From Limisphaerales bacterium (GTDB lineage Bacteria; Verrucomicrobiota; Verrucomicrobiia; Limisphaerales; SXTU01), in contig WRPG01000002.1 of the NCBI GenBank assembly GCA_009773355.1, positions 64,391 through 128,390 of the forward strand: 64,000 bases of DNA, in the 5' to 3' direction. Position numbers and translations under genes: made by a program. Positions 19,357 to 44,097 of the stretch are shown piece by piece (the stretch's first letter is position 1; each line of letters opens with the position of its first letter). Below the pieces are notes generated by a model. It did no database searches. It saw only the letters and a list, made by a program, of their open reading frames with translations, and had not been told where the DNA came from.

Positions 19357-19706
19357 ATTCTGCCAATTCCTCCACCTTTCGCCATCGCATTGACCCTGTC
19401 ACCGCCGCTTGCATGAGCACGATGACGATGTTCGGCCGGTGTGGCAACGGCAGGGCGAACCACGAATCGCCCTCGGTCAATATTACGAGCTTGCTTGGGT
19501 CTGCGGCGAGTTTTCTTGATGTATTCATCGACCTTAGATTGTGGCGGTGGCATTTTGGGCATAGGTTGGAGTGGATTTCGAGTGATGCTACGCATTTGAA
19601 CCCAAACGTCAATTCCGCTGTGATTTCTACGATCTACATACATGATATGTAGGGGCTACCGCCCGTCACCACCCCATTTCCACGGCTTAACCGCCGCCCA
19701 CTACCT

Positions 19707-27297: not shown

Positions 27298-27627
27298 ATG
27301 GATGTTCATTGTTCAACCTGCGGGGAACCGTGGGACACATATCACCTCTGGCATGAGGCCGTGTTTGAAACGGGCTTGAGCCACGAGGAAGCCACGGCGT
27401 GGCGTTCACTGCCCCGCGCCGAGAAGCTCACCGAGCGTTACCGGCAGGAGTTCCGCGCCACTGGTTGGGAATTCGGCCAAGGCGTCATCAATGTCATTCG
27501 TTGCCCGGGCTGTCCCAAGGACGCACAACCCAACGTGGCTCGCGTTCACACCAAAGCCGCCTTGGAAGAACTCTTGGGTGACGACGAGGACGGACTGGCC
27601 GCCACCTTCGAGGACTACCGGTTATGA
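27298..27627 (+). CDS. hypothetical Zn-ribbon-like protein
   Basis: CSTCGEPW ... CPGCPKD Cys pairs. AAGGAG RBS 8 nt upstream. ATGA overlap with the next gene. Confidence 0.55.
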   Translation: MDVHCSTCGEPWDTYHLWHEAVFETGLSHEEATAWRSLPRAEKLTERYRQEFRATGWEFGQGVINVIRCPGCPKDAQPNVARVHTKAALEELLGDDEDGLAATFEDYRL

Positions 27628-28411: not shown

Positions 28412-28474
28412 GCCGCCTCCGGCAAAGCTGCCCGTCTTCATCGAAACGGCGCGGGGACATACGATTCAGGGTGG
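28412..28474 (+). promoter_or_regulatory. copy 3 of the 63-nt repeated element
   Basis: Same 63-nt sequence as copy 2. 38 nt upstream of the ATG at 28513. Confidence 0.6.
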
Positions 28475-28512
28475 TTAGTTCTTCCACAAATCAACCACCA
28501 CAGGAGCATCAC

Positions 28513-29829
28513 ATGAAAAATCAGACATCGTATGATCGTATCACCGACCGTATCACCGCCTTGCTTACGCAAGGCACCGTTCCCTGGCACAAGCCGTGGA
28601 AAGCAAAGACCGGGCTGCCTCGGAACTTCGTCAGTCAAAAACCGTATCGCGGCATCAACGTCTTCTTGTTGATTGCCATGAGCTATGAATCACCGTTCTG
28701 GCTCACGTTCCGCCAGGCAGCACAGCTTGGCGCCTGCGTCCGCAAGGGCGAGAAGGCGTGCCCCGTCGTGTTCTGGAAACAGTGGCAGATTGAAGACAAG
28801 GACTCCGGCGAGCAGAAGAAGATTCCGCTGCTTCGCTTTCACCACGTCTTCAACGTCACCCAATGCGACGGGCTGAACATCGGCACCGAGCCGGTGCCAG
28901 CATCTGTCAATGGGATCTCCAAGCCAGAAGATATTGTGGCGCAGATGCCCCAGCCACCCGTCGTGAAGCACGGCATGTCCCGCGCCTATTATTCCCCTCA
29001 CGAAGATTGCGTGGGCTTGCCGACACGGGAACGGTTCGACACCCCGGAAGGCTACTACGCCACCTTGTTCCATGAGCTGGTCCATTCCACCGGCCACGAG
29101 AAGCGGTTGAAACGAGCCGCCCTCACGGAGTCCGCCGGCTTCGGTTCCAATCCCTACTGCAAAGAGGAATTGATTGCCGAAATGGGCGCGGCGTTTCTGT
29201 GCGGGCATGCTGAAATATCGGAGCGGGTGATTGACAACTCGGCGGCGTATCTCAACGGCTGGCTGGAGCAGTTGCAGAACGACAAAACTCTGATTGTGCA
29301 GGCGGCCGCACAGGCGCAGAAGGCCTGTGACTTCATCCTCGATGTCCGGCCCGAAGACGAAGGGCCGGCACCACAGCAGCCGAAGGAGTTCAAAGTCGTC
29401 GCGCTGCGGGAGTGCCCGACGCCTGAAGAAATGCAACTCTGCGACACGCCCCAGAGCGCCGCCGACTACTGGCGGGCGCACATCACCACGCACCCGTATT
29501 TCAACCCGGAGTGCGAATGCTTCGTGGTGTTGCACTTGAACACGAGGCGGCGCATCCGAGGCCACAACCTGGTTTCGACCGGCACGATGGACACGATTCT
29601 TGTCCATGCACGCGAGGTGTTCCGCACCGCCATCGCGAGCGGTGCGAGCGCCATTGTGCTCATGCACAACCATCCCAGCGGGGAGCCGGCACCGAGCGAA
29701 GCGGACATCAAAGTGACGCGCGACCTCATCCGGGCCGGGCAACTCCTAAAAATGGAGGTGCTGGACCACATTGTGGTCGGGAACCCAACGCATGCTAGTC
29801 TGCGGGAACTGGGATACTTCTTTCAGTGA
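28513..29829 (+). CDS. ArdC-like antirestriction protein (ssDNA-binding N-domain plus HExxH metalloprotease) fused to a RadC-like JAB/JAMM domain
   Basis: ArdC-N: GTVPWHKPW..PYRGINVFLL..PFWLTFRQAAQLGACVRKGEKA. Protease: TLFHELVHSTGHEKRL. RadC/JAMM: ASAIVLMHNHPSGEPAPSEADIKVTRDL. The track start at 28471 lies inside the repeat element. Confidence 0.8.
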   Translation: MKNQTSYDRITDRITALLTQGTVPWHKPWKAKTGLPRNFVSQKPYRGINVFLLIAMSYESPFWLTFRQAAQLGACVRKGEKACPVVFWKQWQIEDKDSGEQKKIPLLRFHHVFNVTQCDGLNIGTEPVPASVNGISKPEDIVAQMPQPPVVKHGMSRAYYSPHEDCVGLPTRERFDTPEGYYATLFHELVHSTGHEKRLKRAALTESAGFGSNPYCKEELIAEMGAAFLCGHAEISERVIDNSAAYLNGWLEQLQNDKTLIVQAAAQAQKACDFILDVRPEDEGPAPQQPKEFKVVALRECPTPEEMQLCDTPQSAADYWRAHITTHPYFNPECECFVVLHLNTRRRIRGHNLVSTGTMDTILVHAREVFRTAIASGASAIVLMHNHPSGEPAPSEADIKVTRDLIRAGQLLKMEVLDHIVVGNPTHASLRELGYFFQ

Positions 29830-30042: not shown

Positions 30043-33000
30043 GTGATGAAAGTGCCCAGTCCAACTTTTCAAGCTAAAGGTTCTCCCTCCTTTGGATTTT
30101 TGTTTCCACTTAATCCACAAGGTGATCCGGCCACTGTTGGCGAAACAGAAAGGACCGGAACAGGAGAAAAAACCTGCCGCCCGAGGAGGATTATTGATTG
30201 GAAGCATCTCCTCTTTCCATTCCTGTTTTTTGTCCTAATTGCGATTCAAGCAGCTCCCGGTGCATTTACAGTGATTTCACCGGGCAGCACTCCTGCTCCT
30301 GGGGCAATCCTTTCCTCGCGAGCTCCCACATTTCGTTGGAACGCCTCGGCCGGGGCCGCAAGTTATGAATTTTATGTCCGAGATGTGACTGACAGCCCTA
30401 CCGGTCAACTTTTCACCTATCCAGTTAGCGGCACTAACACAGTGTTTCAGCCATATCCGGGTCGGTCGTATAAATGGAACGTTGGCGCTTATAGCGGCCC
30501 CAATCAGACGGGGACCTTCACACAGGCCGCCAATTCGTTTTGGTTTATATCGGCCCAATGTGACCTCTTAGTTACCGGCTCGGTTTCTTTGAGTCCAAAC
30601 CCTGTTACTGCCGGAAACACAGTGACTGTCGGTTACACTGTTAAAAACAATGGTAATGGAGATTCCGTCTCCTCTTCAAACCGCATCCAGATCAAAACCG
30701 GGTCCAGCACGACTACTCTAGTTGAAGGGTATTTTTATTTGCCCGCGATTCTGGCAGGCGCTTCCACCAACCTTTCAGCTCAGTTGTCGATTCCAAGCGG
30801 CACCTCATCAGGCACGTATTCGGTCCACACAATTCTGGATTCGCTTGATTACAATGTTCAAAGCAACACTAACAACGACATTCATTCAGAATACGACATT
30901 CTGACCATCAGCGCAGCCCAACCGCAAAGTTTCTTCCTAACATTAGTAACCAATCCGGTGATTGGTGGCTCAATTACTGCCAGCCCTGCGCCAGGAGGCA
31001 ATGGTAAATACTCGGCCAGCACGCTTGTGAATCTAACGGTTGCCCCTGGGGCAGGATATGCTTTCACTGGTTGGCAATTCAATGCCGGTTCAGGTTCGAC
31101 AGTTTCCAGCGTGCCGAACATGACGGCAACCGTCGGTATGGATAGCGACAGGACCGTCACAGCAGTTTTTTCTCAAACCGATGCTTCGGCTCCGGCGTTA
31201 ACAATCGCAAACCCGAGTGATGGGCAAACTTTTGTAAACAGTAGTATCACTGTTTCTGGCACTTCTACCGACAACAATCTTGGAAATAATGGTGTATCTT
31301 CCGTGACAATAAATGGTGTCCGGGCGAGCGGCGACACAGCCAATGGGTCAGGCACCGCTACGTGGACTGGAAGTGTTACACTAAGTCAAGCAACCACCAC
31401 CATTACAGTAGTTGCTCGTGACAATACTGTGAGTCAAAATGCAGTAACCAAAGTCATCACGGTTAATTATCAGCCAACACCTCCACCCGCTCCCACGGCC
31501 AGTTTTTCCGCTTCCGACCTCCAACCCGTGACGGGCAAGGAGGTCATTTTTGATGCGTCCGGTTCTTCTGGCAGCACGAGTTTGATGTTTGCTTGGAGTT
31601 CCGATGACGGCCAGACAGTCCCTTACAACGCCTCCAGCGCCGCCCGTCTTTCGTTCGGCTCCACGGGCACCCGCACTGTCACCCTCCAGGTGAAAGACAG
31701 TTACGATCAGGTTACCTCCACTTCACGGCAAATCACCGTTCAATCCCGCAACATTGGTGGCTCAGGGGGAAGCGGACAAGCATTCACCCCAGACCCGGTT
31801 AACATCGCCACCGGCAACTACATTTACGAGCACACTGATCTCCGCCTGCCAGGCATCGGCTTCCCATTTGAATTCAAGCGGTTCTACAACAGCAAGTTTG
31901 CCAACCAAACGGGCCGCCCAATCGGATTCGGCTGGACCCATTCCTACAACATTTCGCTGATCAGCACGACCACCAACGCGCTCATCACATTCGGGGACGG
32001 TCACGTTGAGACCCACATCCTTCAACCCGACAGCAGTTACCTCCCGGAGGCTGGCGTTTACGACCGCCTTCAGAAGATTGGCGATGGAACTTGGACGCTT
32101 ATCAACAAGGCGCAGATCCAGCAGAACTTCAACGCGCAGGGCCGGCTGGATTCCATTGTGGACAAGAACGGCAATCGGCTCGGACTGATCTACACCACCA
32201 ACCAGTTGACCTCCATCACGAACACAGCAGGACGCAGCGTCACGTTCACCATCGATCCCAACAACGGGTGCATCAGCTCCCTTTTGGACTCCATCGGGCG
32301 CACCATCCGATACGAGTATGACACGCAGACTAATCTCGTTCGAGCCGTGGACGCCAACAACCGCACGAACACGTTTGACTACGACAGCCTTCACCAGCTC
32401 ACCGACGCCTACGATGCCAAAGGCACGCGCTACGTGCGCAACGTCTATGACGCGGCCACGAAAGTTGTGGTCTCACAACTCGATGCCTACGACAAGCCCA
32501 CCTACTTGCGGTATGATTTCACCAACCGGGTGACGTGGGTCACGAACGCCCTTTCCAAAGTCGCGGTCCACACCTTCGACGACCGATTGCTAGTCACGAA
32601 CATCGTGGACGAAGCTGGCCACACAAATTCCTTCAACTACGACACGAACCGCAACCTCATCTGGTCCAGGGACAAGAACAGGAACATCACCACGTATGGC
32701 TACGACCAGCGGGGAAACGTCACGAACAAGACCGATGCCTACAGCAGCATCACGACCATCGAATACGATGCAAAGAACAACCCCACGCGCCGGGTGGACG
32801 CGCTCACCAACATCACGGCATTCGTTTACGATGGCATCGGCAATTTGACGGCCACCACTAACGCCGAGGGACACAGCAATCTCATTGCTTATGATCCACG
32901 CGGACTACCGTGGATTCTCACCGACGCGCGAGGCAACCGCACAACGAATGTTTTCGACACGCAGGCAAACCTCGTGGCCGTTGTGAATGCAAAAGGATTC

Positions 33001-35649
33001 ACCAACCGCTTCGAGTATGACGGTGTCGGACGCAAAGTTCGGCAAATTGATCCGAACAACCGCACCAACACTGTCACCTACGACAACAACGACAACGTCG
33101 TTCTAACCGTCAATGCGCTTGGGTTCACCAACACTTTCACCTACGACGCGAACAACAATCGCACTTCGACCCGTGACCCTCGGAACGCGATCACGACGAA
33201 CATTTTTGACCTCAAAGACCGCCCCACCTTCGTCACCAACGCTCTCAACTTTAGCACCGCGAGCGAATACGACCCGCTCGACCGCGTGATTGCGACCACT
33301 GACCCGCGCACCAATCGCACGAGTTCCGCTTTTGACGACATCGGCAACCGTGTCGCCATCACCAATGCTCTCGGTGAAATCACGCGCTTCACGTTCGATC
33401 CGAATGGGAATCAGACCAGCATCATTGAGCCGGGTGAACGCCTCACCACAAACACTTTCGACGCCCTCAACCAGATCGTCCTCTCCATCAATGCCGCGAC
33501 TAACGTCACTAGCACAGCTTACGACCCACTGAGCCGCGTGATCGCGACGACGAACGGCATCGGCCAGGTCACGCTGTATCGGTATGACCGCATCGGCAGG
33601 CTCACCAATGTCGTAGCCGCCGTCACCAACTCGATTTCCTTTGCTTACGACGAAAATGGCAACCGCATTCGTTTCACCGACTCGAGAGGCAACACTTGGA
33701 CAAACGAGTTCAACGAACTAAATCAGCCCACTGCTCAGAGCGACCCCAAGGGAAACACGTTTAGGTTCTTCTACGACCCGGCGGGCAACCTCACCAATAC
33801 ATTGACACCGAACGGCACGAACATCAGTCGGGGCTATGATGCGGGCAATCAGTTGACCAACATCACGTATCCGACGGGTCCGCCCGTCACCTTCCGCTAC
33901 GACGAGGTGGGCAACCGGACGAACATGACCGACAGCGTGGGAACCACCACCTGGCGGTATGACCTGCTCAACCGCCTCGTGAGCGTCACAGACCCTTACG
34001 GCCAGACCGTGACGAACGGCTTTGACGCAGCGGGCAATCGCGTCGTGCTCGGGTATCCCGGTGACCTCATTACAGTTCGCTACAGCTACGACCAGTTGAA
34101 CCGCATGACAGCGCTTACCAACTGGCTAGGTGGCATCATCACCTACGGCTACAATGATAGGGGAAGCCTCATCAACACCACGAATGCCAACGGCACAAGC
34201 GCTATGTTTGCCTACGAAGCCGCCAACCGTATCGTGGGGCTGACCAATCTTCGCTCCGATACTTCTGTCATTGCGAGCTACGCGCTCAGCCTCGACGGCA
34301 TTGGCAACCATGTCCAGACGCCGCAGACACAGCCGCTGTATCCCATCCTTCCCAACCAGACCAATGCCCATGCCTACGATCTCGACAACCGACTGAGCAT
34401 CGTGGACGGCAAGGCAGTCACACACGACTACAACGGCAATCTCACCGGCATCGGCAGCGAGACGTTCAGCTACGATTTCGAGAACCGGCTTGTTCAGTTC
34501 ACGCTGACCAACTTCTCCGGTTCTTGCACGTATGACGGTGGCGGAACCCGTCTTTCGACCACGGCCAATGGCCTGTCACGCCGCTACGTTCTCGACCGAC
34601 TCGGCTCGCTTTCACAGGTGCTCGTGGAGACGGATACCAACGGGGTCGTCCTTGCCCACTACGTGTTCGGCTTGGGCCTTGCCCAGCGTATCACGCCGGA
34701 CGGGACCGTTAGCACCTACCACTTTGACATTCGGGGGAGCACGGTGGCGATGACAGACGCGGCAGCCAACCTCACGGATGGCTACGCCTACGACTCCTTC
34801 GGCGTGCTGGCGAATCGGGATGGGGATTCCCCACAGCCCTTCCGTTATTTAGGCAGGTATGGTATTCTGGACGACGGAAGCGGTCTTTACTTCGCCCGCG
34901 CCCGCCATTTCAGCCCGCAGTTGGGTCGCTTTCTAACCAAAGACCCGGTGACGGGAAAGGACAGCGACAGTCAGAGTCTGAATCGTTATGTGTATGCGCT
35001 GAATAGTCCGCTTAGACTCAACGATGCTTCTGGACTGTCTCCAGCCGAAGGTTCGTTTGTCAGTAACTACGGGTCCACAGACGCAAACCATGCTTACTTG
35101 CTGAGTGACAGGGAAAGACTTCTCCGATTGGCGCGACTTCAGGCTCAAGTTGCTCAGCAAAACTACATTTACGCTTTAGAGGAGGAGGATGCTTATTATC
35201 AAGCGGCGATAAACTTCTTTGGAGCGCTGAGTAAAATTGGGGAAGTGGCGGGTTACGCCGCCAATATATTGACCTTAGGAGAAAGTGCACTTGCCCAGAA
35301 AGCACTACAGACAGCCGCGTCGCGGATTGGTGCAACAGGAAAGATCGGCGAAACTGCACTCAGATCTCTTGGAGGTAAGCCACAAGTATATTTTAAGACC
35401 ACGCAAGGAGGCAGATACGTTGACCAGTTTGTTAACGGCATCGCAAACGAATCGAAGGTTGGTTACCAATCGCTGACCTCGACCATCAGCCGCCAGATTG
35501 CGAAGGACGTGGAATTAATCAATTCCGGTCAAATCCAAGGAGCAGCCTGGCATTTTTTCCAAAGTCCTGTAACGGGCGCAGGAGGTCCGTCTAGACCGTT
35601 GTTCAATATGCTGCAACATAGCGGGATTGACGTATTCATTCATCCCTGA
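30043..35649 (+). CDS. RHS/YD-repeat polymorphic toxin with N-terminal Ig/CARDB/PKD-like domains and a PD-(D/E)xK-like C-terminal toxin domain
   Basis: TM/signal anchor LLFPFLFFVLIAIQAAPG. PKD-like VIFDASGSSG..TVTLQVKD. RHS shell start DPVNIATGNYIYEHTDLRLPG. More than 40 YD repeats. Core end PFRYLGRYGILDDGSGLYFARARHFSPQLGRFLTKDP..NRYVYALNSPLRLNDASGL. 203-aa C-terminal domain with RYVDQF..ANESK. Confidence 0.9.
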   Translation: MMKVPSPTFQAKGSPSFGFLFPLNPQGDPATVGETERTGTGEKTCRPRRIIDWKHLLFPFLFFVLIAIQAAPGAFTVISPGSTPAPGAILSSRAPTFRWNASAGAASYEFYVRDVTDSPTGQLFTYPVSGTNTVFQPYPGRSYKWNVGAYSGPNQTGTFTQAANSFWFISAQCDLLVTGSVSLSPNPVTAGNTVTVGYTVKNNGNGDSVSSSNRIQIKTGSSTTTLVEGYFYLPAILAGASTNLSAQLSIPSGTSSGTYSVHTILDSLDYNVQSNTNNDIHSEYDILTISAAQPQSFFLTLVTNPVIGGSITASPAPGGNGKYSASTLVNLTVAPGAGYAFTGWQFNAGSGSTVSSVPNMTATVGMDSDRTVTAVFSQTDASAPALTIANPSDGQTFVNSSITVSGTSTDNNLGNNGVSSVTINGVRASGDTANGSGTATWTGSVTLSQATTTITVVARDNTVSQNAVTKVITVNYQPTPPPAPTASFSASDLQPVTGKEVIFDASGSSGSTSLMFAWSSDDGQTVPYNASSAARLSFGSTGTRTVTLQVKDSYDQVTSTSRQITVQSRNIGGSGGSGQAFTPDPVNIATGNYIYEHTDLRLPGIGFPFEFKRFYNSKFANQTGRPIGFGWTHSYNISLISTTTNALITFGDGHVETHILQPDSSYLPEAGVYDRLQKIGDGTWTLINKAQIQQNFNAQGRLDSIVDKNGNRLGLIYTTNQLTSITNTAGRSVTFTIDPNNGCISSLLDSIGRTIRYEYDTQTNLVRAVDANNRTNTFDYDSLHQLTDAYDAKGTRYVRNVYDAATKVVVSQLDAYDKPTYLRYDFTNRVTWVTNALSKVAVHTFDDRLLVTNIVDEAGHTNSFNYDTNRNLIWSRDKNRNITTYGYDQRGNVTNKTDAYSSITTIEYDAKNNPTRRVDALTNITAFVYDGIGNLTATTNAEGHSNLIAYDPRGLPWILTDARGNRTTNVFDTQANLVAVVNAKGFTNRFEYDGVGRKVRQIDPNNRTNTVTYDNNDNVVLTVNALGFTNTFTYDANNNRTSTRDPRNAITTNIFDLKDRPTFVTNALNFSTASEYDPLDRVIATTDPRTNRTSSAFDDIGNRVAITNALGEITRFTFDPNGNQTSIIEPGERLTTNTFDALNQIVLSINAATNVTSTAYDPLSRVIATTNGIGQVTLYRYDRIGRLTNVVAAVTNSISFAYDENGNRIRFTDSRGNTWTNEFNELNQPTAQSDPKGNTFRFFYDPAGNLTNTLTPNGTNISRGYDAGNQLTNITYPTGPPVTFRYDEVGNRTNMTDSVGTTTWRYDLLNRLVSVTDPYGQTVTNGFDAAGNRVVLGYPGDLITVRYSYDQLNRMTALTNWLGGIITYGYNDRGSLINTTNANGTSAMFAYEAANRIVGLTNLRSDTSVIASYALSLDGIGNHVQTPQTQPLYPILPNQTNAHAYDLDNRLSIVDGKAVTHDYNGNLTGIGSETFSYDFENRLVQFTLTNFSGSCTYDGGGTRLSTTANGLSRRYVLDRLGSLSQVLVETDTNGVVLAHYVFGLGLAQRITPDGTVSTYHFDIRGSTVAMTDAAANLTDGYAYDSFGVLANRDGDSPQPFRYLGRYGILDDGSGLYFARARHFSPQLGRFLTKDPVTGKDSDSQSLNRYVYALNSPLRLNDASGLSPAEGSFVSNYGSTDANHAYLLSDRERLLRLARLQAQVAQQNYIYALEEEDAYYQAAINFFGALSKIGEVAGYAANILTLGESALAQKALQTAASRIGATGKIGETALRSLGGKPQVYFKTTQGGRYVDQFVNGIANESKVGYQSLTSTISRQIAKDVELINSGQIQGAAWHFFQSPVTGAGGPSRPLFNMLQHSGIDVFIHP

Positions 35650-35651
35650 CA

Positions 35652-36230
35652 ATGCCTTACACCACTACACAACCGCCGTTCACGCTCAAGTTTCGAGAGA
35701 TGTCCAAACAAGAGCTCAGGGACTATTTTCGATGGTTCTTTGACATACTTCCGAAGAGAATATTCGAACTAACCGACGCAGTCAGGCAAACACCTGGATT
35801 TGAAATGTGGCAGCCTGACAAAACAGCCGATTCACTCGGCGGACTTGGAAAATGGTTCGCGGGTCAAGTCGAGACGCGCCAGCGGACATCGGAAGAGCTA
35901 CAAGAAATTACCGTCCAATCCGCATATCCAATCCAAATCCCTGATGAAGAGTTGACGAATCGGACATTTTCTCTCGCGATGGACGTGGGGATGTATTTCA
36001 GTCAAGTTCTCGTAAACAACCATCCGTCACTCCGATGGGAGCAACTGTTGAACGATAAGAAGTATGTAGACTACGGCCAGCCTGTGCTCGTTGGGTTTGG
36101 GTCAGTTCCTCTCAATCCAGTGCAAATTGCAATAACACTTGCGTATGGGTTAGTGAGCAAAAAGCAAAGCGAGAAGCGATTGCGAGAACTTTACGATTAT
36201 TGGTCAAGGCAGGCCCATTCGAATATCTGA
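35652..36230 (+). CDS. putative cognate immunity protein
   Basis: Starts 3 nt after the RHS stop. 192 aa, no signal peptide. Position is typical for an immunity gene. Confidence 0.6.
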   Translation: MPYTTTQPPFTLKFREMSKQELRDYFRWFFDILPKRIFELTDAVRQTPGFEMWQPDKTADSLGGLGKWFAGQVETRQRTSEELQEITVQSAYPIQIPDEELTNRTFSLAMDVGMYFSQVLVNNHPSLRWEQLLNDKKYVDYGQPVLVGFGSVPLNPVQIAITLAYGLVSKKQSEKRLRELYDYWSRQAHSNI

Positions 36231-36302
36231 ACCTCCAACGTTGCATAGCTTCAATTCAACTTTCAACATGGCAAGAATTTGAACACCAGCACTTAGCGAC
36301 TG

Positions 36303-38435
36303 ATGAAATTGCCAAGACAAACATTCGTGAGGATACTTGCATTCGCAGGCATCCTCACGATTCTTTGCCTTGGCCCATCCCTTTATGCCGTCACCAACAC
36401 CGTCACCTACGGCTACGACCCCCTTAACCGCCTTACAAACGCCGGATACTCTGACGGTTCCCGTGAGTCCTATTCCTACGATCCCGCTGGCAACCGCCTC
36501 ACTCGCATTACGCGTGGCCCAGCGATTCATAGTGACACGGTGCCTCCCTCCATTCCGTCTAATCTGACTGCTCAAGAAGTCTCCACGACACAGCTTCGGC
36601 TCCTTTGGAACCGTTCACCCGATACCGGCGGCTCCGGCCTTGGTGGCTATTCCATTTTCATAAACAACGTCCTTTACATCAACACCACGGCCACGAACCA
36701 ACTCGTGTCCGACCTCTCGCCCGGCAGCAATTACATCTTCACCGTCGCTGCATTCGACAGAGCAGCCAACACTTCCAGCGTCAGCCAATCTTTATCTCAC
36801 ACCGTGAGCAGTCCGCCAGCGATGACTGTGAATCCCACGAATCAGACCGCCTCAGTCGGTGACACCATCTCTTTCAGTGTCACCGCCACTGGAAATCCAA
36901 GCCCCAATTATCAATGGTGGTTCAACGGGAATACACCGATAAGCTGGGGAACGAACGCCACATTGATTTTGACCAACGTGCAGCCAGTGGCTGCGGGTAG
37001 TTACCGCGTGGTGGTGACGAATGTGGCGGGAAGTGTGACAAGTTTAGTGGCCACCTTAACAGTAAATGCACCAGCTACTGGCACAGTATTGGCCTGGGGA
37101 AAGAATGACTTTGGTCAAACGAATGTGCCCGTGGGCTTGAGCGGAGTAACGGCGATTGCAGCGGGAGGTAATCACAGCCTAGCCTTGAAAAACGACAGCA
37201 CCATGGTGGCATGGGGCAACCACTACTTTGGTCAAACGAATGTGCCCGCGGGCTTGAGCGGAGTAACGGCGATTGCAGCGGGAAATGGTCACACTGCGGT
37301 CTTGAAATACGACGGGACGGTGGTGGTGTTTGGAGACAATAGCTATGGCCAGATAAATGTGCCCGTGGGCTTGAGCGGAGTAACGGCGATTGCAGCGGGT
37401 GATTATCACATACTCGCGCTGAGGAACGATCGAACAGTGGTGGCATGGGGAGGCAATCAATTCGGCCAAATTCTGGTGCCCGTTGGCTTGAGCGGAGTAA
37501 CGGCGATTGCAGCGGGAGGTTATCACAGCCTAGCCTTGAAGAGTGACGGGACCGTGGTGGCATGGGGAGAAAACAACTTTGGCGGAACAACAATACCTAC
37601 GACTCTTGCTAACGTAACAGCGATTGCTGGGGGAAATGGTTACAGCGTAGCCTTGAGGGGAGATGGCACCGTGGTGGCATGGGGAAATAACGGCAGTGGC
37701 CAAACGGCGGTGCCGGAATCCTTAAGGGGGGTGACGGCAATTGCGGCTGGATGGTTCCACACGGTAGCGTTGAAAGATGACGGCACTGTAGCGGCATGGG
37801 GAAATAATGACAATGGCCAAACGACGGTGCCAGAATCCTTAAGGGGGGTGACGGCAATTGCGGCTGGACATTATCACACCGTGGCGCTGGTCGGAACAGC
37901 ACAGGCGGTTGCTCCAGCCATCACTGCGCAACCAACGAATGTCCTGTTACTGCGCACGAGCTTGGTGAATGTTCTTCCGGCCACCTTCAGCGTCGTCGCT
38001 ACCGGAACCGCGCCACTTCTCTATCAATGGCGCTTCAATGGCAGCGCCCTTCCCGGCGCAACCAATCCGGCATTTAACCTCGCCAATGTGACGCGGGTTC
38101 ACAATGGCCTCTACAGCGTCGTGGTTACGAACACCGTGGGGACAGCCATCAGTTCAAATGCACTCCTGCGGGTGCGCGTGCCGCAACGACTGGCCTTGCC
38201 GGAGCGGCTGGCCGACGGGCGGATGCGGCTGGGTTTTATTGATGACCTCGGTGGATTGCCAACCACTTTTGATGCCCCTTTCATTGAGGTGCAATTCGCG
38301 ACCAATCTGACAGCGAGCAACATTTTCTGGTTGCCGCTGACCAACGCCGTAACGGTCACGAACGGGATGCTGGTGGTGGACGAGGCGCCTGGCACGGTTG
38401 GCCCACACCGCTTCTACCGCGTGATCGAACGATGA
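36303..38435 (+). CDS. secreted multidomain protein: two YD repeats, FN3, Ig-like domain, eight RCC1-like propeller repeats, Ig-like domain
   Basis: Signal peptide ILAFAGILTILCLGPSLYA. VTYGYDPLNRLTNAGYSDGSRESYSYDPAGNRL. FN3 (LRLLWNRSPDTGGSGLGGY). Repeating WG.N.FGQT.VP..L.GVTAIAAG..H..AL. Ig-like ..YQWWFNG.. and ..YQWRFNG.. Confidence 0.8.
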   Translation: MKLPRQTFVRILAFAGILTILCLGPSLYAVTNTVTYGYDPLNRLTNAGYSDGSRESYSYDPAGNRLTRITRGPAIHSDTVPPSIPSNLTAQEVSTTQLRLLWNRSPDTGGSGLGGYSIFINNVLYINTTATNQLVSDLSPGSNYIFTVAAFDRAANTSSVSQSLSHTVSSPPAMTVNPTNQTASVGDTISFSVTATGNPSPNYQWWFNGNTPISWGTNATLILTNVQPVAAGSYRVVVTNVAGSVTSLVATLTVNAPATGTVLAWGKNDFGQTNVPVGLSGVTAIAAGGNHSLALKNDSTMVAWGNHYFGQTNVPAGLSGVTAIAAGNGHTAVLKYDGTVVVFGDNSYGQINVPVGLSGVTAIAAGDYHILALRNDRTVVAWGGNQFGQILVPVGLSGVTAIAAGGYHSLALKSDGTVVAWGENNFGGTTIPTTLANVTAIAGGNGYSVALRGDGTVVAWGNNGSGQTAVPESLRGVTAIAAGWFHTVALKDDGTVAAWGNNDNGQTTVPESLRGVTAIAAGHYHTVALVGTAQAVAPAITAQPTNVLLLRTSLVNVLPATFSVVATGTAPLLYQWRFNGSALPGATNPAFNLANVTRVHNGLYSVVVTNTVGTAISSNALLRVRVPQRLALPERLADGRMRLGFIDDLGGLPTTFDAPFIEVQFATNLTASNIFWLPLTNAVTVTNGMLVVDEAPGTVGPHRFYRVIER
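37125..37880 (+). repeat. tandem coding repeats of 117-120 nt (RCC1-like blades) with long identical DNA stretches
   Basis: GGCTTGAGCGGAGTAACGGCGATTGCAGCGGG recurs four times with about 117-120 nt period. CCTTAAGGGGGGTGACGGCAATTGCGGCTGGA recurs twice. Confidence 0.8.
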
Positions 38436-38483: not shown

Positions 38484-39188
38484 ATGTTCAACTTCTTCAA
38501 GAAAAAGGCCGACGTCATCGAGCACTGGATTGGCTTCGCCGAAAACTTTCAATTTCCTTCCGCCGACTTCTACGAAGCCGTTGAGAAGGAACTCGAAGCC
38601 CGCAAAGTGCCCGGCTTGGAAAAGTCCCGTGTCGAGTTCGCCGAAGGGGGCCTGCTCTCCGACCAGCGGGTGTATCTGCGAATGTTGCGCGAGCGGCTGG
38701 TGTTCGACGTGTGCGCCGCACCGTTCGGCACCCGCTTCTTTTTCTCCTGCCGCATGGCGGAGATTCCGGCCGTGATTCAACTTTGGCAGCTCGCTGTCGT
38801 GCTTCTCGGCTTGGGCATTTTTGCCGCGATCTTCTGGAAAATCTTCGGCTTCTTCTGGGGCAGCGTCGCGATGGTCACGGCCCTGCTTGTCAGCGTGTAT
38901 CTGCTCCGCAACGCCGTGGCGATGGGGCTCACAGACCTCGATGCTGCCCTCATCAAATCGCCCGTCCTTGGCCCCATCTACGAATGCTTCTTTCGCAAGG
39001 AAACATACTACCGCGTGGACACCCGCCTCATGTATCTCGACACCGTGTCGAACGTGGTGAAGAAGCTGGCCGAGGAAGTGACCGGAGCCAAGGGCGTGAA
39101 GCTCGTGCGCCAATACGAGCAATCGCCCATCTTGGGCGAACTCTACCGCCCCGTGTTGCCCCGTGTGGAGACGGAGCGCAAGCCGTAG
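38484..39188 (+). CDS. hypothetical membrane protein (two or three central TM helices)
   Basis: Soluble N-terminal domain of about 95 aa, then AVIQLWQLAVVLLGLGIFAAIFWKIFGFFWGSVAMVTALLVSVYLL. Ends 7 nt before the large ATPase gene. Confidence 0.55.
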   Translation: MFNFFKKKADVIEHWIGFAENFQFPSADFYEAVEKELEARKVPGLEKSRVEFAEGGLLSDQRVYLRMLRERLVFDVCAAPFGTRFFFSCRMAEIPAVIQLWQLAVVLLGLGIFAAIFWKIFGFFWGSVAMVTALLVSVYLLRNAVAMGLTDLDAALIKSPVLGPIYECFFRKETYYRVDTRLMYLDTVSNVVKKLAEEVTGAKGVKLVRQYEQSPILGELYRPVLPRVETERKP

Positions 39189-39194
39189 CGCGTC

Positions 39195-42100
39195 ATGGCC
39201 TGGGTTGACGAACAACTTTCCGCGCAGTTCCGAAAATGGGAACAGCGCGGACGGGGTTGGCGCGTCTGGCCGGAGCCAGTGGTTCCAGAACCACCCTTCC
39301 AAGTCTTCCCCGGCCACTACCTGCCCGCCGCTCCAATTGCCGACGACGGACGGCGACCGACCGCGCTCAGTTCCTTCGTGCAACGACTCTCCCGCACGTT
39401 GAAGCCGGAACCGCCACCGTTGCCACCCGAACCCGTTGAAGAAGAGGAACCGGAGCCAACCTCACTTACTCGCGATTCACTGATTGAATTTCAGGCATCG
39501 CTCCCCGACAAGCTTGATGTCTCCAAGGAAGCCTTCGAGCAGTTCCTTTTGAATCTTTCACTGTGCCGTGAACCGATTGCTTTTGAACTGCTCGGCGTCC
39601 ACAAGAAAGTCACCGCACAATTTGCCGCTGCCAAAGGCGATGCCCCATTGCTCCGCCGCCAGTTGCAGGCGTATTTCCCCGAAGCCGTCTTTGTCCCGCG
39701 CGAAGGCGCATTGGCGCAGGCGTGGGAAAAGTCCGCCGGCGATGAAGTGCTGGCGGTTGAATTCGGCCTGGCGCACGAATTCATGCTGCCACTCGCGAGC
39801 GGTAGAACCGATCCGTTCATCGGCCTCATCGGCGCTCTGGCGGAATTGCAGCCGGGCGAGCTTGGCCTGTTTCAAGTCTTGTTCCAGCCCGCGCACGAGC
39901 CCTGGCCGGAAAGCATCGTGCGCTCCGTCATCGATGCGGACGGCAAACCTTTCTTCGTTAATTCGCCCGAACTGACACATGCGGCGAAGCACAAAATCGC
40001 CCGCCCCCTGTTCGCCGCCGTGGTCCGCATTCTGGTTCGTTCCAACGAATTTGAACGATTACTGCAACTGGCGCGCGACCTTGCCGGAGCCTTGCGCGTG
40101 TTTGCCCACCCAAACGGCAACGAACTCATTCCGCTTCACAACGACGGTTACCCGTTCGAGGAACACATTGAAGATGTGCTGCGGCGTCAGACCCGGCGCA
40201 CGGGAATGTTGTTGAACAGTGACGAGCTGATGGGCTTCGTGCATATCCCGACGAGTGCTGTCCGCTCGTCCGTCTTTCAAAGGCAGTCCGTCAAATCCAA
40301 GGCGGCCCCGGCCATCGTCGGCCATGACAACGGCCTGCTGCTTGGCGAGAACGATCATGCCGGCCTGACGGTTCCAGTCAGGTTGTCAGCCGAACAGCGC
40401 ACCCGCCACACCCACATCATCGGTGCGTCCGGCACCGGTAAAAGCACGCTGCTTTTCAACCTCATCCGAGAGGACATTCAAAATGGCGAAGGCGTGGCCG
40501 TGCTCGACCCGCACGGCGATTTGATTGATCGCATTCTGGGCATCATTCCGTCGGAGCGGATTGCGGACGTGGTTTTGGTTGATCCGTCCGACGGAGAGTA
40601 TTCCGTCGGCTTCAACATCCTCTCGGCGCACAGCGAACTGGAGAAGAACCTACTGGCTTCTGACCTGGTGGCCGTGTTCCAGCGCCTCTCGACTTCCTGG
40701 GGCGACCAGATGAACAGCGTGTTGCAAAACGCGATTCTCGCCTTTCTCGAAAGCGACCGGCGCGGGACCATCGCCGACTTGCGCCGCTTCCTGATTGAAA
40801 CTCCCTTTCGGAATGAATTCCTGAAATCAGTCCGGGATTCCGAAGTTGTATATTACTGGCAGAAAAGTTTTCCGCTTCTGTCCGGCAACAAATCCATCGG
40901 TTCCATCCTCACCCGACTGGACACCTTCCTAGCCCAGAAGCCCGTCCGTCACATGGTCTCGCAACCCGAGAACCGGCTGGACTTCGCCCACCTCATGGAC
41001 ACTGGCAAAATCTTTCTGGCGAAATTGCCGGAAGGGTTGTTGGGCCGGGAAAATTCGCACCTGCTCGGCACGCTCCTAGTGTCCAAGTTCCAGCAGATCG
41101 CCATGAGCCGGCAGGCGCAGCAGATCACCGCTCGCCGGGACTACTGGCTCTACATCGACGAGTTCGCCAATTTCATCACGCCGAGCATGGCGGAAATTTT
41201 GAGCGGGGCGCGCAAGTATCGCATCGGCCTGACCCTGGCGCATCACGAGTTGCACCAGTTAGAGCGCAATCCCGAAGTGGCGAGCGCCGTGATGACGCAT
41301 CCCCATACGCGGATTGTGTTCCGGGTCGGCGACAGTGATGCCAAAAAATTGGCCGAGGGCTTTTCGTATTTCGAGGCGAAAGATTTGCGGAACCTGGAGG
41401 CCGGACAGGCCATTGCCCGCGTGGAGCGCAGCGACTTTGATTTTAATTTGTCCGTTCCGCTGCCCGCTCCACTCGACGTTAACGTAGTCGCAGCACGACG
41501 GCAGGAAGTCATTACGGCTTCGAGAGAAAAGTATGGCACCGCACGAGCGAACGTGGAGGCGATGCTGGCAAAGTCGCGTGAAGCGGTGGCGTCGCAGCCC
41601 ACAATTGCAACCAAGCCCACCCCGGTTGCGGAACCGCCGAAAGCCCTCGAAGTTCCGAAGGCTGTCGTAACGCCGCCGGTGGTTGAAATTCAGCCGCCAG
41701 TGGTTACGGAAATTCCGAAGTCGAAGGTAGAAACGCCAGCCATCAAACACGAACCGCCCAAGGATTTAGGCCGGGGTGGGGCGCAGCACCAAGCCATTCA
41801 GAAACGCGTCAAAGAGGCGGCGGAAGCTCTTGGCTTCCGCAGCGTGATTGAAAAGCCGGTGCTCGACGGACAAGGCAGCGTGGATTTGTGGCTGGAGCGT
41901 GCCGACCAAAGCATCGCGTGTGAAATTTCCATCAGCACCACGATTGACCACGAGGTTGGCAATGTCGCCAAGTGCTTGAAGGCGGGTGTTCCGAAAGTGG
42001 CGGTGATTTGCCTGGACGAGGAACGCCTGCGGAAGATCGGCAGCGCCGTTTCCGGCAGTCTCGGCGCGGAATTGGCGGCACGGGTGGAATATTTCCAGCC

Positions 42101-42275
42101 CGACCCGTTCATCGCCCATTTGAAGGCGTTGAAGCCGACCGCGACACAGCCAGCCGAAACGGAATATGGCGGTTACAAAATCAAGCGTTCCATCCCGAAA
42201 CTTTCCGCGCAGGAACAGAAGCAAAAAGGAAACCTCGCCAACCGCATCATGGCCGAGGCCATGCGCCGGAAATGA
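39195..42275 (+). CDS. large TraD/HerA-type P-loop ATPase with an unknown N-terminal domain of about 390 aa, a Pro/Val-rich linker and a PD-(D/E)xK-like C-terminal domain
   Basis: Walker A IIGASGTGKST (aa 408-418). Walker B LYIDEFANF. ARKYRIGLTLAHHELHQL. RIVFRVGDSDAKKLAEGF, collinear with 20283-21617. C-terminus: GGAQHQAIQKRVKEAAEALGF..DGQGSVDLWLERADQSIACEISIS..NVAKCLKAGVPKVAVI. Confidence 0.75.
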   Translation: MAWVDEQLSAQFRKWEQRGRGWRVWPEPVVPEPPFQVFPGHYLPAAPIADDGRRPTALSSFVQRLSRTLKPEPPPLPPEPVEEEEPEPTSLTRDSLIEFQASLPDKLDVSKEAFEQFLLNLSLCREPIAFELLGVHKKVTAQFAAAKGDAPLLRRQLQAYFPEAVFVPREGALAQAWEKSAGDEVLAVEFGLAHEFMLPLASGRTDPFIGLIGALAELQPGELGLFQVLFQPAHEPWPESIVRSVIDADGKPFFVNSPELTHAAKHKIARPLFAAVVRILVRSNEFERLLQLARDLAGALRVFAHPNGNELIPLHNDGYPFEEHIEDVLRRQTRRTGMLLNSDELMGFVHIPTSAVRSSVFQRQSVKSKAAPAIVGHDNGLLLGENDHAGLTVPVRLSAEQRTRHTHIIGASGTGKSTLLFNLIREDIQNGEGVAVLDPHGDLIDRILGIIPSERIADVVLVDPSDGEYSVGFNILSAHSELEKNLLASDLVAVFQRLSTSWGDQMNSVLQNAILAFLESDRRGTIADLRRFLIETPFRNEFLKSVRDSEVVYYWQKSFPLLSGNKSIGSILTRLDTFLAQKPVRHMVSQPENRLDFAHLMDTGKIFLAKLPEGLLGRENSHLLGTLLVSKFQQIAMSRQAQQITARRDYWLYIDEFANFITPSMAEILSGARKYRIGLTLAHHELHQLERNPEVASAVMTHPHTRIVFRVGDSDAKKLAEGFSYFEAKDLRNLEAGQAIARVERSDFDFNLSVPLPAPLDVNVVAARRQEVITASREKYGTARANVEAMLAKSREAVASQPTIATKPTPVAEPPKALEVPKAVVTPPVVEIQPPVVTEIPKSKVETPAIKHEPPKDLGRGGAQHQAIQKRVKEAAEALGFRSVIEKPVLDGQGSVDLWLERADQSIACEISISTTIDHEVGNVAKCLKAGVPKVAVICLDEERLRKIGSAVSGSLGAELAARVEYFQPDPFIAHLKALKPTATQPAETEYGGYKIKRSIPKLSAQEQKQKGNLANRIMAEAMRRK

Positions 42276-42287: not shown

Positions 42288-42524
42288 TCATTTCCTTTTC
42301 AGATGAAAGACCGGGCCGACAACTTTGTAAGGCGAGCAAGCTTCGATCATGCGGATGCGAAGGCCGGTCAAACTCAATTCCGGTCGCTCTTCCGCGTTGA
42401 ACACCGACGGTGCCGAGACACGGAGTTTGCGAGCCACCTCCGCTTTGGATTCGCCGCAAGCTTCACGGAATTGCTTGGCCAGGGCCGCCAGTTGCTTTTC
42501 TTTAACGGTTGTTTTGACGCGCAT
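42288..42524 (-). CDS. small helix-turn-helix protein
   Basis: LAKQFREACGESKAEVARKLRVSAPSVFNAEERPE. Divergent from the second recombinase gene. Confidence 0.5.
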   Translation of the reverse strand: MRVKTTVKEKQLAALAKQFREACGESKAEVARKLRVSAPSVFNAEERPELSLTGLRIRMIEACSPYKVVGPVFHLKRK

Positions 42525-42606: not shown

Positions 42607-44097
42607 ATGAAGGACCATAGCGTCTTGAACAAACCGGTTGGCATCTGGATTCGGGTTTCCACCGAGGATCAAGCCAAGGGCGAAAGCCCGGAACACCACG
42701 AGGAACGTGCCCGAAGCTACGCCAAAAGCCGTGGCTGGCAGGTCAAGGAAGTCTATGACCTTGCCGGGCAAAGTGGCAAAGCCGTGATGCAGCACCCGGA
42801 GGCCAAGCGCATGATGAAGGACGTGGAACGCGGCCACATCAACGGCCTGGTGTTTTCCAAGCTGGCCCGCCTGTCCCGGAACCGCCGCGAACTGGAGGAT
42901 TTTTCCGATTTCTTCAACAGCCATCAGGCCGACCTCATTTCTTTGAGCGAGGCGATTGACACCAGCACCGCCGGAGGCCGGATGTTCTTTCATCTGCTTG
43001 GAGTCTTTGCACAGTGGGAACGCGAAGAAATAACGGAGCGCGTGAATGCGTCGGTGTTGACCCGTGCCAAACTTGGCAAATCCATCAACGGCAGCGCCCC
43101 GTATGGCTACCAGTGGAAGGAGCGCAAGCTGGTCATCCAACCAGAGGAAGCCGCCATTCGTCGCAAAACTTACGAGCTTTTTTTGCAGTGCCGTCGCAAA
43201 GGTCAGGTTGCCCGCGAATTGAACGCCGCCGGCTACCGCACTCGCAACGGCAACCTGTGGCGCGACACCTCGATTCTGCGGCTTCTGGACGAATCCAGCG
43301 CCAAGGGCGTCTATGTGTTCAACACCGTGCGCCAAACGGGAGACTGGCGCACCGAACCCAAACCAGAGAGCGAATGGGGCAAGGCCGAGTGCGAACCCAT
43401 CATTTCCGAAGACCACTGGAACCAGGTCAACCAGATCATCGAGGAGCAGTTGAAATCGTGGAAGAAGCCGGGCAAGCCGCCGGTGCATCTGTTCAGCGGC
43501 CTGGCCTTTTGTGCCTGCGGCAACAAGATGTATGTGGCGGCCAACAGCCCCAAATACTTCTGCCGGAAGTGCTCGAATCGCATTCCCATCACGGACTTGG
43601 AAAACATCGTCCGACAGGAGTTGAAGGTCTTTTTCGGCCAGCCGGAACGCATCGCCGGCCATTTGCAAGAAGCCGGCCGAAACCTGGCCGAAAAGTCCGC
43701 ATTGCTCGATGCGCACCAAAAGGAAATCCAGAAAGTGCGCGATGAGATGACGCGAACACATCGGCTCTACATCCAGGAACAAATCACCGCGCAGGGCTTC
43801 GGCGACTTCTACAAGCCCGCCGAAGCCCGGTTAAACCAGCTCTTGGCTGAACTGCCCAAACTCGAATCCGAGGTGGACTTCTTGAAAGTCAACAAGCTGT
43901 CTGCCGCTGATGTCCTCCATGAGGCCAGTTCACTCTACGACCGCTGGCCCGCATTGCCGCCTGCGGACAAACGGAAAGTGGTTGAAGCGCTCATTGAAAA
44001 ACTGGTGATTGGAAACGGCGAAATTGACATAACCTTCTCACATCTCCCATGTTCTGAAGAATTGTGCAAAAACCAACAGGGGTTAGGGCTAGGGTGA
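42607..44097 (+). CDS. large serine recombinase
   Basis: VGIWIRVSTEDQAKGESPEHH (catalytic Ser), VFSKLARLSRN, recombinase domain APYGYQW, Cys cluster CACGNK..CRKCSNR, C-terminal coiled coil. 496 aa. Confidence 0.9.
   Translation: MKDHSVLNKPVGIWIRVSTEDQAKGESPEHHEERARSYAKSRGWQVKEVYDLAGQSGKAVMQHPEAKRMMKDVERGHINGLVFSKLARLSRNRRELEDFSDFFNSHQADLISLSEAIDTSTAGGRMFFHLLGVFAQWEREEITERVNASVLTRAKLGKSINGSAPYGYQWKERKLVIQPEEAAIRRKTYELFLQCRRKGQVARELNAAGYRTRNGNLWRDTSILRLLDESSAKGVYVFNTVRQTGDWRTEPKPESEWGKAECEPIISEDHWNQVNQIIEEQLKSWKKPGKPPVHLFSGLAFCACGNKMYVAANSPKYFCRKCSNRIPITDLENIVRQELKVFFGQPERIAGHLQEAGRNLAEKSALLDAHQKEIQKVRDEMTRTHRLYIQEQITAQGFGDFYKPAEARLNQLLAELPKLESEVDFLKVNKLSAADVLHEASSLYDRWPALPPADKRKVVEALIEKLVIGNGEIDITFSHLPCSEELCKNQQGLGLG

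Follow-up and report, generated by a model that had tools for sequence, protein, structure and literature searches.

Type IV coupling proteins (T4CPs) are, in their canonical form, hexameric ring ATPases that receive relaxase-processed DNA and pump it toward a mating channel. TraB of Streptomyces is a double-strand DNA translocase of the FtsK_SpoIIIE family that has a membrane domain of its own and recognizes DNA through a C-terminal domain. The 14-kb element ICETh1 carries a membrane-bound hexameric HerA/FtsK-type ATPase, nucleases needed for transfer and a site-specific recombinase, and has neither a relaxase nor a type IV secretion system (T4SS) (PMC5365140). Mobilisable streptococcal elements of "class 8" are compact and combine a serine integrase, a MOB_C relaxase (the family of Pfam PF13814, Replic_Relax) and a VirD4-type coupling protein (PMC5357655), and MOB_C is described as the restriction-endonuclease type of relaxase (PMC11104534; also a title in the reference list of PMC5365140). 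Here, we analyzed two adjoining genes at positions 38484-42275 of a 64,000-nt stretch from a Limisphaerales bacterium (contig WRPG01000002.1, positions 64,391 to 128,390 of the forward strand; hereafter, the window), whose products are a large ATPase and a small membrane protein. Both genes have a fixed place in the backbone of an integrative element that covers ~24 kb of the window (roughly 20.0-44.2 kb). We favor, at a probability of roughly 55%, the reading that it forms a membrane-associated DNA motor of the T4CP family with a tethered nuclease, serving a relaxase-bearing integrative element of Verrucomicrobiota.

The paired genes and their products

The first of the two open reading frames (ORFs) encodes the 234-aa membrane protein (38484-39188, +), and the second a 1026-aa T4CP-family ATPase with a predicted C-terminal nuclease domain and no transmembrane (TM) segment (39195-42275, +). 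The TAG stop codon of the small gene occupies 39186-39188 and the ATG of the large gene begins at 39195, leaving a spacer of 6 nt (cgcgtc). The original prediction, which was made from the letters of the window, had recognized the two adjoining ORFs but placed them 7 nt apart, a figure that is the difference between their coordinates. The large protein has more than 3,700 homologous clusters in public data at E <= 1e-5, of which the best 120 are all full length, and the small protein has 1,481, every one of them unnamed and without a Pfam family. With thousands of homologous clusters in public data, neither ORF is a chance reading frame. The public gene call for the locus (P0001, 951 aa) begins 75 codons downstream, leaving out 39195-39419 and with it the conserved N-terminal peptide. 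Homologues that align from M1, with invariant residues within aa 12-60, back the 1026-aa frame, and judged from these alignments the long start is the correct one. Scans for promoters and terminators around the pair returned sites no more frequently than expected by chance.

The small protein contains a single hydrophobic block (aa 91-149) in a Kyte-Doolittle scan, which is long enough for two TM helices, and hydropathy averaged over its family reaches maxima at 101-118 and 125-137. The TM check that had been proposed for 38484-39188 therefore yields one hydrophobic hairpin (aa ~94-147; 38763-38924, +), predicted to form two TM helices. The sequence of this hairpin differs among homologues yet its hydrophobicity is always kept, which is the pattern expected of an anchor. 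The N-domain (aa ~27-92, cytoplasmic) and the C-region (aa ~150-225) are conserved in the family. No match to any Pfam, NCBIfam, PADLOC or PHROG family was found for the small protein.

Pairing of the two genes was assessed in related genomes. A scan of one genome per species yielded 80 related loci (individual loci are designated by L numbers), 67 of which had enough upstream DNA for the count. The membrane homologue ends at most 95 nt upstream of the large gene in 62 of these 67 loci, overlaps it in one, is separated from it by an insertion in three, and is absent in one; this makes 63 loci in which the two genes are direct neighbors, with the membrane gene first. In the reverse direction, all three sampled membrane homologues precede a DUF8128-type ATPase and then a recombinase, with the genes overlapping in two cases. 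The membrane and large genes overlap in L088 and L089. The pair is a dedicated unit, and translation of its two genes is probably coupled. These co-occurrence statistics, which the original prediction had called for, show that homologues of both genes do occur together, and its proposal of a dedicated membrane partner is borne out in both directions. In some elements, a 177-aa protein with four predicted TM segments is encoded directly upstream of the membrane gene (8720-9253 in L001; homologues in 15 loci). The window has no such gene, and the set of membrane proteins in the module thus differs between elements.

The large protein shows the four-part layout that had been described for it, with an N-terminal domain, an ATPase core, a Pro/Val/Glu-rich linker and a C-terminal module all present. 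Conservation was assessed in an alignment of 36 full-length homologues (71-86% identity). The TrwB/VirD4-type P-loop ATPase core spans aa 393-800 (40371-41594, +), and nearly every residue of its Walker A motif GASGTGKST (aa 410-418, with K416; 40422-40448, +), of its Walker B-like motif LYIDEF (aa 652-657, with D655 and E656; 41148-41165, +) and of ARKYRIGLTLAHH (aa 672-684) is invariant. The best Pfam match is TrwB_AAD_bind, at 46.6 bits against a cut-off of 20.5 (aa 397-721), and the best NCBIfam match is a VirD4-like family, CD1115 (E = 3.6e-11, aa 381-712), although the score lies under that family's curated cut-off. In a search of PDB sequences, the top match of the large protein was TrwB. 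The VirB4/CagE/TrbE profile TIGR00929 matched at E = 0.0019 and 16.5 bits against a cut-off of 643, well below what assignment to VirB4 takes. HerA profiles match only ~40 residues at the P-loop (aa ~393-443), the PHROG terminase profile likewise matches the P-loop only, and no FtsK_SpoIIIE match was found against Pfam; FtsK profile matches are otherwise weak or confined to the P-loop. By these profile matches, the ATPase of the large protein belongs with the type IV coupling proteins (VirD4/TrwB/TraG). The earlier description of a TraD/HerA/FtsK-type core is upheld by the Pfam, NCBIfam and PDB matches in so far as the core is TraD/TrwB/HerA-like. The 444-aa ATPase encoded at 20283-21617, which had been pointed out as a paralog, is indeed related to the large protein (32% identity over 432 aa, E = 1e-68).

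Homologues of the large protein are also found in annotated conjugation operons, those of Bacillus and Embleya being distant (22-30% identity). On the 24.7-kb B. subtilis plasmid NZ_CP032854, directly downstream of an 886-aa homologue come a replication-relaxation gene and genes for a conjugal transfer protein, for a TcpE-family membrane protein and for a further ATP-binding protein. The order on the Embleya plasmid NZ_CP108778 is a PrgI-family protein, an ATP-binding protein, an 812-aa homologue, a replication-relaxation gene and an NlpC/P60 hydrolase; this homologue is annotated as "T4SS conjugative DNA transfer family protein" and has its own TM anchor. The TraG-like ATPase of Sulfolobus pING1 (1042 aa; L087, 1978-5106) is a further homologue, aligning over aa 265-741 at 24% identity. 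As these operons are annotated, homologues of the large protein hold the coupling-protein position next to MOB_C relaxases.

A Pro/Val/Glu/Lys-rich linker (aa 801-858; 41595-41768, +), hypervariable in length and sequence (alignment columns 801-955), connects the ATPase core to a nuclease-like domain of PD-(D/E)xK fold (aa 859-985; 41769-42149, +). Conserved in this domain are G-x-GG-xx-H865, Q869, K873, E886, D897, E910, E920, N923 and K926. An AlphaFold2 model of aa 850-1026 has a core with predicted local distance difference test (pLDDT) values >90, in which a helix, three strands, a helix, a strand and a helix follow one another; the core topology, alpha-beta-beta-beta-alpha-beta, is that of the PD-(D/E)xK superfamily. 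The C-terminal tail (aa 986-1026; 42150-42272, +) is predicted to form a beta-hairpin and a basic helix, in a lower-confidence part of the model. The best Foldseek matches in the PDB are EcoT38I, AF1548, Bax1, R.BspD6I, the R2 retrotransposon endonuclease, YaeQ and Can2, all PD-(D/E)xK proteins, and the best named matches among viral models are PD-(D/E)xK, MmcB-like, VRR-NUC and Mrr proteins. The PDB matches have probabilities up to 1.0 and E-values of 1e-4 to 1e-2; taken over both libraries, matches to PD-(D/E)xK nucleases reach a probability of 1.0 with E-values of 1e-5 to 1e-3. A profile search of PDB sequences with the C-domain returned only a designed protein and Cgi121, with weak scores.

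Residue conservation in the C-domain was counted across 129 relatives (27-65% identity). D897 and E920 are conserved in 100% of them, H865 and E886 in 99%, E910 in 98%, K926 in 94%, N923 in 93% and K873 in 85%, and both D897 and E910 are also invariant in the 36 full-length homologues. In the model, D897 lies opposite E910 on the hairpin of strands 2 and 3 (model residues 45-53 and 56-62). This hairpin is the site of the metal-binding acids in the PD-(D/E)xK superfamily. As modeled, the metal-binding site looks intact, and the domain may act as a nuclease. The original prediction had read the module as PD-(D/E)xK and had named a non-nuclease fold with no conserved acidic residues as the outcome that would speak against it; a confident nuclease-type fold with conserved acids was found.

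The C-domain was detected in 1,418 clusters in a search of 1.84 billion representative proteins, and among the 150 best, all 29 proteins of at least 700 aa hold it within 25 residues of the C-terminus. Every one of the 76 homologous ORFs not cut by a contig end has kept the nuclease domain. A fusion of a coupling protein to a relaxase was considered and rejected, since neither BLASTP nor hhalign indicated homology between the C-domain and the element's MOB_C relaxase.

At its other end, the large protein starts with a conserved peptide (aa 1-60; 39195-39374, +) in which F12, E16, RGRGW 18-22, E32, P33 and DD 50-51 are invariant. An acidic, proline-rich variable linker follows (aa 61-95; 39375-39479, +), within which a recombination boundary between modules may lie. 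The alpha/beta domain beyond it (aa 96-392; 39480-40370, +) carries in homologues a precomputed Pfam match to DUF8128 (PF26449), on which a literature search returned no hits. The N-region aligns with Bacillus and Sulfolobus proteins from aa ~211-265 onward, which makes it an old companion of this ATPase clade. No hydrophobic segment is present in the large protein, as no 19-residue window across the 1026 aa comes up to the hydropathy threshold.

The integrative element and its relatives

The pair had been proposed as a stand-alone two-gene system. It sits instead in a larger element, together with a MOB_C relaxase, a primase, an ArdC/RadC protein and a serine recombinase. An island of lower G+C content (0.45-0.61, against a background of 0.65-0.68) extends over ~8-46 kb of the window. 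Genes left of ~20.2 kb and right of ~44.1 kb have no counterparts in related loci and the backbone genes do, which sets the span of the element at ~20.0-44.2 kb. The left end is formed by the small paralogous ATPase, a T4CP core of TrwB/DUF87 type (444 aa; 20283-21617, +), and the right end by a large serine recombinase (496 aa; 42607-44097, +). Between them lie the Replic_Relax (MOB_C) relaxase (23242-24144, +), which retains the conserved, invariant motif PD...LEADRGT, and two further backbone genes, a DnaG-type primase with a zinc ribbon and a Toprim domain (24271-25305, +) and a 452-aa fusion of ArdC-N, a zincin peptidase and RadC (28471-29829, +). ArdC and RadC are associated with anti-restriction and the handling of single-stranded DNA. 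In L001, ArdC (283 aa) and RadC (153 aa) are separate genes. A helix-turn-helix (HTH) regulator of 78 aa (42288-42524, -) is encoded between the large ATPase and the recombinase, and most related loci have an HTH homologue in this interval or just ahead of the two genes. The relaxase belongs to the same element as the large gene but is not adjacent to it.

The window's element, compact elements of ~13 kb and the sampled cargo regions contain no match to a type IV secretion family, in a survey confined to these regions and not extended to helper systems elsewhere in the genome. By gene content, the element classifies as an integrative mobilizable element, with its own integrase and relaxase and no mating-channel genes, an architecture parallel to that of the streptococcal class 8 elements. 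No tRNA genes that could serve as integration targets lie within the window.

The 80 related loci are mostly from Verrucomicrobiota (Limisphaerales, "subdivision 3"), with a few in genomes assigned to other phyla, and a complete Nitrospirota chromosome (L085) is among the carriers. Gene tables and tblastn reveal a common order: small ATPase, Replic_Relax relaxase, primase, small ORFs, ArdC, RadC, variable cargo, membrane gene, large ATPase, HTH regulator and serine recombinase. This backbone order is seen in the window, in L001, L003 and L088, and in many further loci; in L001/L040 and L088 the whole set is packed into ~13 kb with no room to spare. Cargo enters at two places, the interval between the small ATPase and the relaxase and the region upstream of the membrane gene, and it differs by locus. 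The window holds a caspase and an RHS toxin, and MmeI-type restriction-modification genes, PEGA/TPR genes or an FtsK/WXG100 set are found elsewhere.

This contrast between a fixed backbone and variable cargo bears on the possibility that the pair is a defense or exclusion module, a membrane-held ATPase-nuclease that degrades incoming phage DNA or competing plasmid DNA. We regard such a role as quite unlikely. It would be in line with the match of the large protein to PADLOC mad8 (E = 1e-19), taken together with the weak HerA matches, and with the caspase, RHS toxin and methyltransferase as other conflict genes in the same element; pairs of an ATPase and a PD-(D/E)xK nuclease are moreover known as defense systems, for example DUF4297-HerA (PMC11291478). 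However, the mad8 profile derives from HHpred matches to PDB structures and therefore captures a generic TrwB/HerA core, and it matches the small ATPase equally well. Membership in MADS was rejected because mad8 is the only such match and mad1-mad7 are not present. The HerA matches are confined to ~40 P-loop residues. Further, almost all loci have the pair at its fixed place beside the recombinase, in contrast to cargo such as defense genes, which varies, and homologues occupy coupling-protein positions in annotated conjugation operons. Of the two options that the original prediction had left side by side, transfer is thus favored and defense is not.

The cargo of the window's element begins with the caspase (491 aa; 21663-23138), which carries Peptidase_C14 and matches the NCBIfam "EACC1-associated type" at E = 8e-24. 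It separates the small ATPase from the relaxase, which are adjacent genes in elements such as L001 and are separated by one small ORF in L088; this site looks like a hotspot for cargo insertion. The domain scan also identified a ligase-like/WGR protein (26070-27143) and an orphan N6 DNA methyltransferase (27624-28367). ATP-dependent ligase-like WGR proteins occur in few related loci only, and the one encoded here could reseal DNA after hydrolytic cutting. The block at 30043-38435, just upstream of the pair, comprises an RHS-repeat protein of 1868 aa with DUF6531 and CARDB (30043-35649), a 192-aa ORF of no family (35652-36230) that could be the immunity protein of the RHS protein, and a 710-aa RCC1/Ig/fn3 protein that starts with an RHS repeat (36303-38435). 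No member of this block is conserved in related loci.

Other loci carry other genes at the same place. Repeatedly, the neighbor of the membrane gene encodes a PEGA (+TPR) protein of 550-730 aa (L003 2189-8590, L046 7333-9189, L082 7496-9265, L027 4991-6796, L078 7484-9226). In L003, a set of FtsK_SpoIIIE, PEGA, WXG100 and DUF6932 genes resembles type VII secretion cargo. The recombinase end abuts a ComM/YifB-like Mg-chelatase gene in L001 (15956-17032), L089 (13627-14703) and L090 (14272-15978), encoding 358 aa in two of these loci and 568 aa in the third, which suggests a preferred integration site in or beside this gene. Several metagenome-assembled genomes (MAGs) hold two different copies of the element (L017/L025, L007/L018, L010/L028, L015/L039, L057/L060 and L033/L049), and L090 shows a copy in decay, in which the ATPase gene is split and just a fragment of the recombinase is left.

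A viral origin, or a phage satellite, was also considered. The large protein matches PHROG 5156 (function unknown) over aa 262-795 at E = 5e-62, and distant homologues occur in large Bacillus phages (phage G gp156, SPO1-like; ~22% identity over the N-domain and ATPase). This candidate was rejected despite the PHROG match, because a close relative is present on 1 of 2.9 million IMG/VR contigs only and there are no capsid genes nearby.

G+C content is also low in a second stretch, left of the element (8588-19652), which encodes another large serine recombinase (616 aa; 9944-11794), a RuvC-like ORF (8588-9103, -), a response regulator, a pseudopilin-like N_methyl/DUF1559 protein, GtrA and several ORFs of no family. 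This stretch may be a separate island integrated in tandem.

A proposed role in transfer and its alternatives

In the transfer reading, the membrane protein would anchor the motor in trans, replacing the two-helix N-terminal anchor of a canonical coupling protein, perhaps by binding the motor's conserved 60-residue N-terminal peptide. The soluble DUF8128 domain would then stand where the TM anchor would otherwise be. The nuclease, held on a disordered linker of ~60 residues, would cut DNA handled by the motor and, acting beside the separate MOB_C relaxase, either make an entry end or end a round of transfer. On current understanding, a restriction-endonuclease-type MOB_C relaxase forms no covalent link to DNA as classical relaxases do. 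HUH relaxases pilot the strand and re-join it, which would not be expected of a hydrolytic enzyme of this kind, and motor-linked cutting is attractive for this reason. A cut of this kind, followed by recombinase-mediated resolution or integration, could be a workable cycle.

Because it has no type IV secretion genes, the element should be either mobilizable or transferred in an unconventional way. We propose that it most likely borrows the mating channel of a co-resident conjugative element and then integrates by means of its terminal serine recombinase. The combination of relaxase, primase and ArdC is consistent with conjugative transfer of a single strand. The comparison to an actinomycete integrative and conjugative element (AICE) made in the original prediction does not hold in the sense of the FtsK/TraB family, since there is no FtsK_SpoIIIE match, the ATPase sides with the T4CPs, and these three genes point to the transfer of a single strand.

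Several observations weigh against this reading. The element encodes no mating channel, and the N-terminal TM domain that defines T4CPs is missing from the large protein. In related loci it is the small paralogue, not the large protein, that adjoins the relaxase, and in the ATPase core the Bacillus and Embleya homologues share 29-33% identity with the small paralogue, against 22-30% with the large protein. The small paralogue may therefore be the true coupling protein, and the large protein may have another role. For the C-domain, a Pfam search at E up to 10 returned no match to a nuclease family by sequence, so its assignment as a nuclease comes from the fold. Where the (D/E)xK motif canonically has its lysine, the C-domain has S912, a serine of low conservation; in the model, K926 and K873 on the flanking helices are candidate substitutes. 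In addition, nearly all of the 80 related loci are in MAGs.

The co-variation of the two proteins is equivocal as well. Identity of the membrane gene across loci tracks that of motor aa 1-60 (rho 0.51, p = 5e-5) and not that of the remaining motor, as would suit a docking peptide, but identity of the motor's C-tail likewise tracks that of the recombinase (rho 0.56). With similar values at both ends of the gene, plain linkage of neighboring DNA suffices as an explanation, and the co-variation is compatible with contact between the two proteins but does not call for it.

For the N-domain, the AlphaFold2 model (aa 1-392) is poor (pLDDT 48.7), and Foldseek returned no match to it at E <= 0.001. 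The top matches, VAO-type flavoenzymes, have TM-scores <0.3 and were dismissed as uninformative. Matches to the TrwK/VirB4 N-domain are also non-significant (TM-score ~0.28, E 0.06-0.15), which is a further point against the proposed transfer role. These low-confidence matches nevertheless raise the question of whether the pair is a VirB3/VirB4-like remnant. In the general layout of type IV secretion, VirB3 and VirB4 are encoded in the order that is mirrored here, with a small hairpin protein upstream of a soluble ATPase that has an N-domain and a C-terminal P-loop domain. A motor for maintenance of the excised circle (replication, resolution or segregation) is a related option, and would suit an element that has a primase and no helicase. 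Both options appear very improbable. VirB4 profiles score far worse than VirD4-like ones (E = 0.0019 versus 3.6e-11), the structural matches come from a poor model and are not significant, and the Bacillus and Embleya operons have a separate ATP-binding protein beside the homologue, which is probably the VirB4 equivalent.

The lack of secretion genes can also be read at face value: a minimal apparatus for donation, made up of the membrane protein, the motor-nuclease and perhaps the small ATPase, would cut the excised element and push it out without a channel. Comparable cases are TdtA with its NurA-like nuclease in ICETh1, which serves as a precedent (PMC5365140), and TraB in Streptomyces. Such export would be in line with complete-looking elements of ~13 kb that have no type IV secretion genes, with the great abundance of the family and its occurrence in MAGs assigned to several phyla and on the complete Nitrospirota chromosome, and with the retention of the motor-nuclease fusion in all 76 uncut homologues. 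Against it, the element would have to cross the two membranes of its hosts and encodes no outer-membrane conduit, the ATPase lies outside the FtsK_SpoIIIE and TraB families, and the elements have kept a primase, ArdC and a MOB_C relaxase whose motif is intact, as befits single-strand transfer through a channel. We consider channel-independent export unlikely on balance. Equally doubtful is its extended form, in which donation without a T4SS lets ~13-kb elements spread among two-membrane bacteria and the PD-(D/E)xK domain defines the ends of the transferred DNA in the manner of a terminase.

A membrane-anchored transfer motor with a tethered nuclease, if this is what the pair encodes, would matter in several respects. 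Little is understood of how genes move horizontally among Verrucomicrobiota and other environmental phyla, and elements of this family are very common, with toxins, caspases, restriction-modification genes and secretion genes among their cargo. If the nuclease cuts transferred DNA, MOB_C elements would have a new way to start or stop conjugative transfer. If the elements instead move without any secretion system, channel-independent conjugation would be extended beyond Thermus and actinomycetes. The pair and the adjacent serine recombinase also make a good annotation marker for these islands. None of the papers searched described a coupling protein with a nuclease domain, or this arrangement of genes.

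Comparison with known systems

The likeness to phage large terminases is one of function only. They too combine a DNA-pumping ATPase and a nuclease that cuts the translocated DNA in one polypeptide. Terminases have an ATPase of a different lineage and an RNase H-like nuclease, and in contrast to phages, the window's element has no capsid genes and its motor family is essentially absent from viral contigs. The TraG-like protein of Sulfolobus pING1 (~1000 aa) shares similar size, an N-domain and a long C-terminal extension with the large protein. Its extension contains a winged-helix region and, after the ATPase, a stretch "RPDLVAF...AVAIEIES" that is nuclease-like by eye; homologous origin of this extension and the window's C-domain was rejected, as hhalign and hmmsearch gave no significant similarity.

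HerA-NurA and DUF4297-HerA likewise combine a ring ATPase of the same superfamily with a nuclease. The HerA-NurA logic invoked in the original prediction holds as a functional analogy but not as an identity, because the nuclease is not NurA and HerA profiles match the P-loop only. The window's nuclease fold differs from that of NurA, no NurA-type gene was found, and there is no evidence for the HerA N-terminal barrel in the large protein. Unlike the HerA defense pairs, the window's pair is fixed in the backbone of a mobile element rather than placed in a defense island.

With the Streptomyces TraB proteins and AICEs, the pair shares a single motor that is central to the transfer of a small integrative element. 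Unlike TraB, the large protein has no FtsK_SpoIIIE match and no TM segment, and its C-terminal domain has a nuclease fold. Similar in architecture is TdtA of ICETh1, which mediates "transjugation" in Thermus thermophilus: here, too, a small integrative element has a recombinase, a membrane-associated ring ATPase of the HerA/FtsK/TrwB superfamily combined with nuclease function, and no T4SS. However, the nucleases of ICETh1 are separate proteins (a NurA-like protein and a type IIG restriction enzyme) and it has no relaxase, whereas the window's element has a fused PD-(D/E)xK domain as well as a relaxase, a primase and ArdC. The likeness seen between TdtA and the window's motor is one of architecture.

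The known systems closest to the pair include the coupling proteins found next to MOB_C relaxases on Gram-positive plasmids and in the streptococcal class 8 elements. These share with the large protein a P-loop core matching the TrwB all-alpha-domain profile and an association with a MOB_C relaxase and a serine integrase. In contrast to them, the large protein lacks a TM anchor of its own and has a DUF8128 N-domain, a separate membrane partner and a C-terminal PD-(D/E)xK domain; its element has no T4SS and encodes a second, minimal paralogue near the relaxase. The parts are thus known ones, namely a coupling-protein ATPase, a PD-(D/E)xK nuclease, a MOB_C relaxase and a serine recombinase. What is unusual is the permanent fusion of motor and nuclease, the motor's want of an anchor of its own, with a putative one placed on a partner protein, the occurrence of two paralogous motors, and the abundance in Verrucomicrobiota of an element family without secretion genes.

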